From contig CP006915.1 in NCBI GenBank assembly GCA_000503915.1, positions 420,001 through 452,000 on the forward strand: a stretch of 32,000 nucleotides of DNA, read 5' to 3'. Of this stretch, positions 9,271 to 32,000 are shown piece by piece (the first letter of the stretch is position 1; every line of letters starts with the position of its first letter). The position numbers were made by a program, and so were the translations under genes. Below the pieces are notes generated by a model. The model saw only the letters and a list, made by a program, of their open reading frames with translations. It searched no databases and was not told where the DNA came from. This DNA is from Candidatus Saccharimonadota bacterium. GTDB lineage: Bacteria; Patescibacteriota; Saccharimonadia; Saccharimonadales; Saccharimonadaceae.

Positions 9271-9292
9271 TTGTTATAATAAATTGCGGTAG

Positions 9293-9437
9293 CGGGGTTT
9301 GGCGCAGTCTGGTAGCGCGCACGCCTGGGGTGAGACGAGCCGGTGGCTCGTCGTAAGGAAATCTTCCGATGGCGGCTATGCTGCCAATCGTGAAGTTTCG
9401 GGGTCGCCGAAGGTGACCGTGAGGAACCTCATGCCGG
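9293..9437 (+). pseudogene. disrupted tRNA-Pro(GGG) copy carrying the 86-nt element in its anticodon loop
   Basis: 9293-9330 is identical to the first 38 nt of the intact tRNA at 9466. After the insert, CCGTGAGGAACCTCATGCCGG loosely resembles GCGTGAGGTCATCGG. There is no T loop or 3' acceptor strand. Confidence 0.75.
9331..9416 (+). ncRNA. unclassified 86-nt structured RNA element, copy 1
   Basis: Collinear with 29388-29473: 62/86 identical, no indels. Hairpins at 9336-9350, 9358-9399 (nested long hairpin) and 9404-9416. 9 compensatory pair changes between copies. Confidence 0.65.
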
Positions 9438-9465
9438 AGGACGTGTCGTATAATAGAACAAGTAG

Positions 9466-9542
9466 CGGGGTTTGGCGCAGTCTGGTAGCGCGCACGCCTG
9501 GGGGGCGTGAGGTCATCGGTTCAAGTCCGGTAACCCCGACCA
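9466..9542 (+). tRNA. tRNA-Pro (anticodon GGG)
   Basis: CGGGGTT-TG-GCGC..GCGC-G-CACGC-CTGGGGG-GCGTG-AGGTC-ATCGG-TTCAAGT-CCGGT-AACCCCG-A-CCA. TATAAT lies 11 nt upstream. Confidence 0.93.
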
Positions 9543-9699: not shown

Positions 9700-10584
9700 G
9701 TGAAGCAGCTTATCTCGGTGCGGGCAATTATCCGCGACGGTGGAAAAACCCTCCTACTTCGGCGGGCAAACGGCCGCCAGACTATATTGGGTAACTATGA
9801 ATTACCCGGCGGAAAGCTTGGCTACGGAGAGCAGCCCGAAGATGCACTGGGACGGTATATCAAGAATGACCTAGGACTCCATCTTCAAACGGTTCAGCTA
9901 GCGGACGTGTTGACGTATATCGATCATGACGATCGAGACATTCAGTATACGTTCATTCTCTACCTTGCCAGTGTGGTAAACCCCGACACTATTACATTAA
10001 GTGAGAGCTATGATCGGTATCAATGGAAGAGGATAAGAGAAGTCGAGCAGGGAAGCCTTACTGAATCGGCAAAGTTATTGCTGGGTATCGCAGAACAGCA
10101 AGTTACTGGGGTGAAAGAGGGCGAACTGGTTGAAAAACCTATCACTGAAAAGTTACCCGACGACGGTAGTCATGTTATTATCTATTCCGATGGTGGGTCG
10201 CGAGGCAATCCGGGTCCTTCCGCTTCGGGTTTTGTGATTATGAATGCCCATGAAGAAGTGATTCACCAGGGTGGTATGTACTTGGGTGTCACCACTAACA
10301 ACCAGGCTGAATATCATGGTGTACGCTTAGGCCTTGAGAAGGCAGGTGAGCTTGGAGCGAAGACGGTAGATTTTCGAATGGATAGCCTGCTCGTCGTAAA
10401 CCAGCTAAATGGCGTCTACAAGATAAAAAACCGCGATCTGTGGCCGATTAGCGAACGGATTCGTGAACTAGCTAGTGGGTTTGAGAAAGTAACCTTTAGT
10501 CATGTGCGGCGTGAGTTCAACCAGCTGGCCGATGGGATGGTGAATAAGATATTGGACGCTCAAGACACCAATAGGCGTAAATAA
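9700..10584 (+). CDS. Nudix-like domain fused to RNase HI
   Basis: 294 aa, GTG start with AGAGGA RBS. N-terminal Nudix fold with a degenerate box (GGKLGYGEQPEDALGRYIKNDLGL). C-terminal RNase HI: YSDGGSRGNPGPSASGF, NNQAEY, DSLLVVNQL, REFNQLADGMVN. Confidence 0.8.
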   Translation: MKQLISVRAIIRDGGKTLLLRRANGRQTILGNYELPGGKLGYGEQPEDALGRYIKNDLGLHLQTVQLADVLTYIDHDDRDIQYTFILYLASVVNPDTITLSESYDRYQWKRIREVEQGSLTESAKLLLGIAEQQVTGVKEGELVEKPITEKLPDDGSHVIIYSDGGSRGNPGPSASGFVIMNAHEEVIHQGGMYLGVTTNNQAEYHGVRLGLEKAGELGAKTVDFRMDSLLVVNQLNGVYKIKNRDLWPISERIRELASGFEKVTFSHVRREFNQLADGMVNKILDAQDTNRRK

Positions 10585-27304: not shown

Positions 27305-28909
<1,605 letters not shown>

Positions 28910-29284: not shown

Positions 29285-29321
29285 GGGGTAAGTCGGGCTT
29301 CGGTCCGTTCTTACTCCACCA
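29285..29321 (+). ncRNA. tRNA-Ala-like acceptor/T-arm minihelix ending in ACCA
   Basis: GGGGTAAG-T-CGGGC-TTCG-GTCCG-TT-CTTACTCC-A-CCA. An 8-bp acceptor-like stem with G3:U and a 5-bp stem capped by a UUCG loop, then discriminator A and CCA. Confidence 0.5.
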
Positions 29322-29334
29322 AGAGTACATGTAT

Positions 29335-29485
29335 GGGCGCCTAGCTCAGTTGGCTCTGGTCTCTCGTTTACACCGAGAGGGTCGGGGTGAGAACTGCCAG
29401 TGGCAGTTCGCAAGGCGACTTTCCGAGGTAAGCTGTGCTTACCATCGTGAAATCGCGGGCTCGCCGAAGGTGAGTCGAGTCCCGA
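29335..29485 (+). pseudogene. disrupted tRNA-Val(UAC)-like copy carrying the 86-nt element in its T arm
   Basis: GGGCGCC-TA-GCTC... with an intact anticodon arm TCTCG-TTTACAC-CGAGA. The D arm is degenerate. The T stem TCGGG/CCCGA is split by the insert. There is no 3' acceptor strand. Confidence 0.7.
29388..29473 (+). ncRNA. unclassified 86-nt structured RNA element, copy 2
   Basis: Collinear with 9331-9416. Hairpins ACTGCC-AGT-GGCAGT (29393-29407), GTAAGC-TGT-GCTTAC (29428-29442) and TCGCC-GAA-GGTGA (29461-29473). Confidence 0.65.
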
Positions 29486-29500
29486 AGCTTAATAAATTAT

Positions 29501-29577
29501 GGGTTGTTAGCTCAGTTGGCTAGAGCATCTCGTTTACACCGAGAGGGCCGGGGGTTCGAGTCCCTCACAACCCACCA
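29501..29577 (+). tRNA. tRNA-Val (anticodon UAC)
   Basis: GGGTTGT-TA-GCTC..GAGC-A-TCTCG-TTTACAC-CGAGA-GGGCC-GGGGG-TTCGAGT-CCCTC-ACAACCC-A-CCA. Confidence 0.95.

Positions 29578-30058: not shown

Positions 30059-32000
<1,942 letters not shown>

Follow-up and report, generated by a model that had tools for sequence, protein, structure and literature searches.

Within a window of 32,000 nucleotides of a Candidatus Saccharimonadota genome (assembly GCA_000503915.1, contig CP006915.1, positions 420,001 to 452,000; "the window" denotes this whole stretch), two short segments differ in sequence, agree in their RNA fold, and lie inside pieces of tRNA genes. This raises the question of what kind of genetic entity they represent: an RNA module used by the host, a tRNA intron, or an element that moves. 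To our knowledge, Saccharibacteria are episymbionts with small genomes and few known mobile elements, and we know of almost no characterized non-coding RNA from this phylum.

Two Folded Copies in the Window

An earlier note on this DNA had described an 86-nt structured RNA element at 9331-9416 and 29388-29473. The two segments align end to end without gaps and with 62 of 86 identical positions, as claimed there. The proposed extent is correct for the 86-nt core; the true unit, however, spans 9329-9418 and 29386-29475, with 2 nt more on either side, since two additional covarying pairs close the 3′ hairpin. The element contains no ORF, again in agreement with the note. Over 88 nt, the copies differ in 26 columns, 21 of which are paired positions, and of the 12 differing pairs, nine are changed on both sides and still paired, two are wobble changes, and one is broken. 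All base pairs that had been proposed check out, including 40/56 (U:A versus G:C) and 73/87 (G:C versus C:G), and RNAalifold independently gives the same 5′ hairpin, long central hairpin and 3′ hairpin. Folded alone, each copy adopts these three hairpins at -39.7 kcal/mol (z = -3.6 and -4.0 relative to dinucleotide shuffles).

Copy 1 (9329-9418, + strand) is complete and extends from GGUGAGA to GGUGACC over 90 nt, including the G's shared with its tRNA flank; it is delimited by alignment and by a covariance model (106 bits, E 1.6e-20). Its hairpin H1 (9334-9352, + strand) has 8 bp and a 3-nt loop, and the long central hairpin H2 (9358-9399, + strand) combines a conserved internal loop (GA / AUC) with a tip that varies, both hairpins being based on folding, covariation and RNAalifold; the 3′ hairpin H3 (9402-9418, + strand; folding and covariation) comprises 7 bp, a GAA loop and a conserved G.U pair. 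Copy 2 (29386-29475, + strand), equally complete, lies in the 16S-23S spacer according to the rRNA coordinates and scores 102 bits (E 9.8e-20); folding and comparison of the copies place its hairpins H1, H2 and H3 at 29391-29409, 29415-29456 and 29459-29475, all on the + strand. The element starts with GGUGAGA, and its 3′ ends read GUGACC and GUGAGU in the window copies. With the covariance model of 115 homologues, the window contains exactly two copies, the next match scoring 13.7 bits, and the 3′-half pattern occurs twice in the window versus 0.00 times expected.

No known ribozyme or riboswitch had been recognized in the element, and this assessment holds for Rfam 15 (4227 models): no family matches either copy, whether the window is searched at gathering scores or the two loci are searched at E<=10 under relaxed filters. 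The models covered include hammerhead, twister, pistol, hatchet, HDV and hairpin ribozymes, group I and group II introns, T-box, YrlA, tmRNA, and riboswitches. A snoRNA reported by Rfam beside copy 1 (E 0.82) is a chance match. A description of the element was not found in the open-access text of the literature.

A Family of Elements in Saccharibacteria

Homologues were collected by two pattern scans seeded with the conserved blocks, which together yielded at least 136 sites and at least 118 distinct sequences, a sample biased to canonical copies. The first scan used the 3′-half pattern against one genome per species; this pattern is too GC-friendly, and the upstream TTCCGA block served as filter. 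About 110 of the 120 matches listed were chance matches in Actinomycetota and similar GC-rich genomes, and the eleven true homologues among the matches listed are all from MAGs of Saccharibacteria/Saccharimonadales. The second scan, with the 5′-half pattern in metagenomes, returned at least 120 loci. Among the matches listed by both scans, all true homologues from named genomes are Saccharibacteria. A covariance model built from 115 homologues gives about 170 matches in the fetched Saccharibacteria loci. Judged from these sequences, the element is a multi-copy family, seen here in Saccharibacteria only. Pattern scans of viral contigs (IMG/VR) returned no true copy and one chance match in a coding region (L001); the element is therefore not phage-borne in IMG/VR.

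Selection on the RNA fold had been claimed from two copies, and over 115 distinct aligned sequences the covariation is very strong: 97.3% of pair cells are standard pairs, and double changes occur at 19 of 33 pairs, over 497 cells. None of 500 shuffles matches any observed measure of pairing or covariation, and when the 3′ partners are slid as a control, pairing falls to only 24-44%. The fold is also kept in the half of the element that lies outside each search pattern. Among the 115 sequences, the three outer pairs of H1 covary with 22, 45 and 15 double changes, double changes are found in 11 of the 18 pairs of H2, and pair 82/87 alternates between GC (55 sequences) and CG (45 sequences). RNAalifold adds the previously proposed pair 40/56 (alignment columns 42/59), with 12 double changes. 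The column pairs with the highest mutual information are essentially all helix pairs, and the same mutual-information scan of the family alignment detected no tertiary or pseudoknot covariation. Of the 115 sequences, 102 have G.U at pair 80/89 and 40 have it at pair 76/93; because such G.U pairs are conserved, foremost 80/89, the + strand is the strand that folds.

The layout that emerges is GGUGAGA, H1, the junction UCGCAAGG, the long H2, GGG, and H3 with its GAA loop: a strand-specific element of about 88-90 nt without an ORF. Diverged members keep GGUGAGA-H1-UCGCAAGG and GGG-H3(GAA), while the long hairpin varies. With a closing stem supplied by the flanks, the element would form a multi-helix junction. 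The existence of a Saccharibacteria family of more than 100 copies, its embedding in tRNA fragments beside intact tRNAs, and its behavior as a mobile insertion had escaped the earlier note.

Both Window Copies Interrupt Truncated tRNA Copies

Copy 1 directly follows, after canonical position 37, a duplicated 5′ half of tRNA-Pro(GGG). The repeat search delimits this duplicate as 42 nt at 9289-9330 (+ strand), consisting of "gtag" and the tRNA-Pro(GGG) 5′ half to canonical position 37, and identical at 100% to 9462-9503. Downstream of the element, "cgtgagg" (9418-9424, + strand) matches tRNA-Pro positions 41-47, i.e., the 3′ strand of the anticodon stem and the variable loop; because the tRNA-Pro sequence resumes here, copy 1 is an insertion within a tRNA-Pro copy. 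The same heptamer is found 3′ of the element at the syntenic loci L234 and L155. The interrupted copy is without T arm and 3′ acceptor strand, and its parent is the intact tRNA-Pro(GGG) at 9466-9542 (+ strand; ARAGORN; Rfam tRNA, 60 bits). By sequence and repeat family, a TATAAT box lies 5′ of the interrupted copy (9275-9280, + strand) and a second one 5′ of the intact tRNA-Pro (9449-9454, + strand); both were noted by eye only, and a strict σ70 and terminator scan detected no full promoter or terminator around copy 1. A segment at 9427-9448 (+ strand), read by eye as cctcatgcc ggagg acgtgtcg, is partly complementary to the flanks of the element, and the MFE fold pairs it with both of them.

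Copy 2 occupies the T loop of a tRNA-Val(UAC) copy. The part upstream (29335-29387, + strand) is a diverged tRNA-Val(UAC)-like 5′ part that covers the tRNA from the 5′ strand of its acceptor stem up to the T-stem 5′ strand and is 82% identical to 29498-29553 (repeat search), and the part downstream, "tcgagtccc" (29475-29483, + strand), matches tRNA-Val positions 56-64, that is, the remainder of the T loop and the 3′ strand of the T stem; the copy is without a 3′ acceptor strand. An intact tRNA-Val(UAC) of the parent type (29501-29577, + strand; ARAGORN; Rfam) follows 27 nt downstream, and the order in the spacer is 16S, tRNA-Ala, copy 2 unit, tRNA-Val, tRNA-Ile, 23S. Given this position inside the spacer of an rRNA operon, copy 2 must be transcribed. 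Two of the seven tRNAs in the window are accompanied by such a unit, a patchy distribution.

Architecture of the Units Across the Family

The same association holds for the family at large: an intact tRNA on the same strand lies within about 100 nt at 98 of 135 sites, and the host tRNA copies are broken at positions 22-25, 37/38 or 50-55 (62-64 in long-arm tRNAs). G or GG precedes nearly all copies of the element. At sites without a nearby tRNA, the search for other hosts, such as tmRNA or RNase P, found only tRNAs. Two classes of unit can be distinguished. In class A (56 of 135 sites), the intact tRNA lies ~65-100 nt upstream, the element invariably interrupts a 3′ partial copy in its T loop, and these partial copies end exactly with CCA. 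In class B (42 of 135 sites), the intact tRNA lies downstream and the element breaks a 5′ partial copy that starts at or near +1, in the D arm (22-25) at 16 sites, in the anticodon loop (37/38) at five, in the T loop at 18, and at unplaced positions at three. The other 37 of the 135 sites are contig edges, have diverged neighbors, or concern other hairpins.

Class A units have a further component. In 45 of 48 units, an inverted copy of the trailer and the last ~32 nt of the tRNA lies between the tRNA and the element (median 52 nt, 79% identity; z 4.3), and the resulting palindrome has its center in the loop of the terminator hairpin that belongs to the tRNA. Such a unit reads tRNA, trailer, loop, and inverted copy (trailer, CCA, acceptor 3′ strand, T arm), followed after a tight turn by the T-stem 5′ strand, the element, the rest of the T loop through CCA, and a different trailer. 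The inverted copy is enriched at tRNAs with a downstream repeat (69% versus 31% with z>3). Class B units are tandem duplications of the leader and the 5′ part of the tRNA, with the element in the first copy; the duplication at L200 includes a 53-nt leader, and L155 contains a repeated unit of 189 nt. In many units, the neighboring tRNA and the duplicated tRNA part agree at 100% over 38-64 nt.

A universal guide strand complementary to both flanks of the element was considered and rejected, as across the family exact complements are not enriched (4.65 versus 4.46 nt) and the duplex energy has a z of about 0. Only the inverted copy of class A is left of this idea; the class B signal is weak (z 1.3). 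Other inserts, non-homologous or partly related, occupy the same type of partial tRNA copy in 34 of 86 repeats. Among about 50 downstream repeats, no partial tRNA copy of the same architecture was free of the element; either duplication or insertion may therefore have come first, or a single mechanism may couple the two.

Movement, Host Use, or Splicing?

Several observations point to movement. Elements that are 94-98% identical reside in unrelated tRNAs (tRNA-Lys, -His, -Glu, -Leu, -Gly, and -Ser): near-identical pairs connect Lys with His, Glu with His, the T loop of Leu with the D arm of Gly, and Glu with Ser, and the members of these pairs differ in tRNA, position and class. Pairwise similarity starts at GGUGAGA and stops at GUGACC, and the flanks are unrelated. 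The nearest relative at another locus shares tRNA type and site in only 16 of 85 cases, versus 5.8 expected by chance. Tandem units (L185, L203), two elements in one pseudo-tRNA (L140), truncated or nested modules (L128, L149, L156), a chimera (L089 versus L086), and degenerate copies are also present; at L196 the element is antisense to the neighboring tRNA, and at L239 it lies in a terminator-like hairpin. Clustering of the ORFs within 4 kb of 130 loci revealed no recurring neighbor protein, the best cluster being found at 8 of 130.

The best explanation, which we hold with moderate confidence, is that the element is a tiny, non-autonomous, mobile structured element of a new kind. It would land after G or GG in tRNA stem-loops, i.e., in the D arm, in the anticodon loop at 37/38, or in the T loop, and would survive only where a duplication leaves an intact tRNA beside the interrupted and truncated copy. 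Its fold might be a cis-acting module for an enzyme acting in trans, or might itself be catalytic. Insertion might occur into a single-stranded, folded target, as RNA or ssDNA, and be fixed by recombination or template switching, which could also generate the partial direct and inverted tRNA duplications; template switching or snap-back synthesis could give rise to their direct-inverted-direct pattern. Several observations stand against the mobile reading: no transposase, integrase or reverse transcriptase is tied to the element, it has neither terminal inverted repeats nor short target duplications, and insertion has never been caught in the act. In addition, the likeness of copies across contexts could in part reflect strong constraint instead of recent movement.

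If movement is real, Saccharibacteria carry a previously unrecognized genetic element, a protein-free 88-nt fold that colonizes tRNA stem-loops, and the phylum gains a new structured RNA family. Such an element would account for the tRNA-like pseudogenes and the unusual rRNA spacers of Saccharibacteria genomes, would offer a tractable system for the RNA- versus ssDNA-mediated movement of small elements without an enzyme of their own, and would touch on old questions of how tRNA introns and split or rearranged tRNA genes arose. The covariance model is also of practical use, as a marker of the lineage and for correcting the annotation of tRNA and rRNA-spacer regions. A bolder version, which we regard as rather improbable, is a minimal mobile RNA: a four-way-junction fold would catalyze or direct its own insertion into loops exposed on folded tRNA transcripts, the resulting RNA chimera would be copied back to DNA, and snap-back (hairpin-primed) synthesis and recombination would produce the direct-inverted-direct duplications. 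If this is true, bacteria would have their own equivalent of mobile archaeal tRNA introns or SINEs, and the element would represent a new class of self-propagating RNA.

Movement could also take place at the level of DNA, as a variant of the mobile reading. The element would then be the remnant of an ssDNA transposon, a miniature IS200/IS605-type or other HUH-type element, whose ssDNA hairpins are read by a transposase encoded elsewhere and whose targets are the hairpin loops that tRNA genes form when single-stranded at replication forks. The sharp ends, a hairpin near each end and the lack of a short target duplication agree with this proposal, as do strand specificity and the preference for insertion after G or GG; the antisense site L196 and the terminator-like site L239 fit structure-directed DNA targeting and not tRNA as such, and a missing linked ORF is expected of a non-autonomous copy. 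However, in contrast to IS200/IS605 ends, the hairpins near the two ends have unrelated sequences, and the G.U pair (G.T in DNA) kept in 102 of 115 sequences, together with covariation throughout the long internal hairpin, is more typical of RNA. It also leaves the 30-60 nt direct and inverted tRNA duplications unexplained. We give this proposal a similarly low probability. Removal as an intron, by self-splicing or by an enzyme, as for bacterial group I tRNA introns or archaeal introns, appears very unlikely. Its appeal lies in the sites, which include the canonical 37/38 and D- and T-loop positions as in Thermoproteales tRNA introns, in the resumption of tRNA sequence 3′ of the element, and in the start GUGAG, which resembles the group II 5′ end GUGYG. 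When the element was excised in silico at 132 sites with 7 x 20 boundary combinations and ARAGORN was used to detect a tRNA spanning the junction, a tRNA was restored at only 4 of 132 sites over all combinations (L218, L223, L225, and window copy 2). Excision cannot otherwise give a tRNA, because 128 of 132 host copies are without a tRNA end, and this truncation of the hosts disfavors a simple intron. Moreover, an intact, uninterrupted tRNA of the same kind adjoins most copies, group I and II introns are much larger than 88 nt, and the group I, group II and ribozyme models of Rfam remain unmatched at E<=10. Bulge-helix-bulge pairing between the ends of the element was not seen by eye in folds of the window copies, alone or with flanks.

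The remaining alternative is that the host uses the element as an RNA module. An RNA of tRNA fragment and element, expressed along with tRNA or rRNA operons, could signal processing, act as decoy for toxins or enzymes that bind tRNA, or regulate the neighboring tRNA, with the tRNA flanks giving specificity. The tRNA-Pro unit speaks for this proposal: with the element at 37/38, it keeps its place in the window and at L234, L155 and L140, a syntenic position 5′ of a NUDIX-RNase H gene whose products are only 50-61% identical. This synteny, which counts against the mobile reading, suggests long retention and possibly a host function. The interrupted 5′ half at L234 is close to the tRNA-Pro 5′ half of the window, whereas the neighboring tRNA of L234 itself differs. 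At the level of sequence, the synteny, the likeness at L234, and the 100%-identical tRNA parts suggest long retention with gene conversion, or host use. Further points in favor of a host module are the purifying selection on the fold, the presence of copy 2 in an rRNA operon spacer, where it must be transcribed, and the potential of class A units to fold as a long hairpin or as a minihelix-like stem with NCCA at its end. A host module is hard to reconcile, however, with the patchy occurrence at 2 of 7 window tRNAs and with the different tRNAs that are affected in different genomes; with the degenerate copies, tandem arrays, chimeras and antisense copy; with unrelated inserts at the same kind of site; and with similarity among elements that is independent of tRNA type. 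A conserved partner gene was not found among the ORFs near 130 loci. We consider host use unlikely, though the most credible of the alternatives to movement.

Relation to Known Elements

The element fails the defining tests of every family considered, namely of the Rfam families, of group I, group II and BHB introns, of MITEs, of integrase-borne islands, and of retrons. A group I intron requires a P1-P9 core of at least ~200 nt and ligation of the exons, which an element of 88-90 nt with three hairpins does not provide. Group II introns have six domains including domain V, a 5′ GUGYG and a 3′ AY; the likeness is confined to GUGAG, a domain V-like hairpin is absent, and the Rfam group II models are unmatched. 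Bacterial group I introns in tRNA-Leu and tRNA-fMet resemble the element in that a structured RNA breaks an anticodon loop, but they exceed 200 nt as opposed to 88 nt, whereas the element is without the group I core, is also found in the D arm and the T loop, and has hosts that are not functional genes. The BHB introns of Thermoproteales are short ORF-less inserts at 37/38 and at D- and T-loop sites, for which "intron transposition" has been described. Mobile archaeal tRNA introns share with the element the occurrence of related inserts in different tRNAs and at different positions. The element differs from them in being bacterial, in having a conserved fold of its own instead of a BHB at the junction, and in residing in truncated hosts beside intact genes, from which removal does not restore a tRNA. 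The location at 37/38 or in another tRNA loop is that of archaeal/eukaryal-type tRNA introns, but removal does not yield a complete tRNA at 128 of 132 sites, and both window hosts are without a 3′ acceptor strand.

Tyrosine-recombinase integrative elements target sublocations of the anticodon and T loops of tRNA genes. The present element uses the same sublocations, a partial tRNA duplication likewise keeps an intact gene, and successive units can stack at one tRNA in both cases. However, the whole unit measures about 150-250 bp and has no integrase or cargo, its duplicated part can be the 5′ part of the tRNA, class A has an inverted copy of the tRNA 3′ part, and the conserved portion is the folded 88-nt element and not an att core. 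MITEs, REP sequences and IS200/IS605-derived palindrome-associated elements are similarly small, non-coding, multi-copy, sharply bounded, hairpin-rich and non-autonomous. As in MITEs, multiple copies with sharp bounds occur in unrelated sequence contexts; terminal inverted repeats and a short target-site duplication are absent, the ends GGUGAGA and GUGACC being unrelated to each other and the flanks being long partial tRNA duplications and not short repeats. In contrast to all three groups, the element shows strand-specific covariation and a conserved G.U, is found almost exclusively in tRNA stem-loops, and is accompanied by long partial duplications of its target. Compared with palindrome-associated elements of the IS200/IS605 type, it has hairpins near both ends, but these are dissimilar, and G or GG lies upstream of nearly all copies.

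Fusion of tRNA-derived sequence with an unrelated body is also known from tRNA-derived SINEs and from the hybrid tRNA-plasmid cDNAs of the Mauriceville retroplasmid in Neurospora. The units described here are alike in that their duplicated tRNA parts begin with the mature 5′ end or terminate precisely with CCA; such CCA ends do not demonstrate an RNA intermediate, because CCA is genome-encoded in these bacteria. Unlike in SINEs and Mauriceville cDNAs, the tRNA part of each unit matches the local neighbor and varies from copy to copy, only the body being shared, and there is no linked reverse transcriptase. A retron (msr/msd) would need an adjacent reverse transcriptase, and no recurring ORF adjoins the element; the RVT_3/RNase H-like ORF next to copy 1 (9700-10584) is the syntenic NUDIX-RNase H gene, which is found only at tRNA-Pro loci.

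Stacked, Tandem and Displaced Copies of the Element

The structured element of about 88-90 nt (EL) occurs in several compound arrangements among the Saccharibacteria loci fetched by pattern scans (L-numbers). At two loci, L185 (1150-1860, - strand) and L203 (8180-8720, - strand), one tRNA is followed by a stack of two class A units, i.e., partial 3′ tRNA copies running to CCA with an insert in the T loop, and each stacked unit has a separate terminator. The second unit carries the canonical EL at both loci; the first unit holds a different insert in L185, an element of ~60 nt with the 3′ end GGAGCAAAGCG, and an AT-rich, decayed, EL-like insert in L203. Other loci show duplication at a smaller scale: L155 contains a tandem repeat of a 189-nt unit (oriented 4385 and 4574) consisting of a tRNA-Pro half, EL and spacer, and a single pseudo-tRNA-Pro in L140 (190-379) bears two ELs, one in the D arm and one at anticodon-loop position 37/38. 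The tRNA 5′ part is duplicated along with a 53-nt leader in L200, and in L128, L149 and L156 an EL truncated 3′ of the long hairpin is immediately followed by a new GGUGAGA-H1.

The ELs of L089 (2449-2538) and L086 (5792-5881) are nearly identical and share a 3′ flank, the tRNA-Leu anticodon stem onward, but their 5′ flanks differ: the EL of L089 is preceded by D-loop sequence from a different tRNA, that of L086 by the 5′ half of tRNA-Leu. This pattern resembles recombination between two EL copies. In L196 (1083-1172), the EL is antisense to the neighboring tRNA-Phe and lies within a reverse-complement tRNA copy. In L239 (1046-1135, - strand), a hairpin resembling a terminator (stem CGGGUG...CACCCG, then UUUUU) is located 3′ of a protein gene and carries the EL in its loop.

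Other Inserts and Hairpins

The canonical EL is absent from 34 of the 86 tRNA-flanking repeats. Further small insert families share its kind of site, a tRNA-derived partial copy (L151, L201, L136, L160, L189, L235, L241, L131, L144, L153): one example ends 3′ in ...UUUAGA and is found in tRNA-Gly 3′ repeats, another comprises ~45 nt in the D loop, followed by the reverse complement of D-loop sequence. In the tRNA trailers of L042, L127, L131, L139, L141, L235 and L242, the terminators are long palindromes that take in the encoded CCA end (CCA-N-stem-loop-stem-N-UGG).

In the window, a 37-nt hairpin (29285-29321) lies in the rRNA spacer directly 3′ of tRNA-Ala. Its sequence, GGGGUAAG-U-CGGGC-UUCG-GUCCG-UU-CUUACUCC-ACCA, looks like an alanine minihelix, with a G3.U70 pair, A73 and a CCA end; L106 and L132 carry the same hairpin with compensatory stem changes. 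Relative to the Rfam models, the 16S gene contains a 139-nt insertion (~27385-27523, near model position 79-85), and the 5′ domain of the 23S gene contains two, of about 57 nt (30343-30400) and about 74 nt (30410-30483). None of these rRNA insertions matches the EL covariance model.

Neighboring Protein Genes

An ORF at 9700-10584 encodes a NUDIX domain fused to an RNase H-like (RVT_3) domain. In L234, L140 and L155, the tRNA-Pro unit that carries EL likewise has an orthologue of this ORF (50-61% identity) on its downstream side; this adjacency probably reflects synteny, not a functional link. The 936-aa ORF at 16777-19587 matches DUF8128, DUF87 and, weakly, TraG-D_C, domain matches by which it is predicted to be a conjugation or DNA-translocation-type ATPase.
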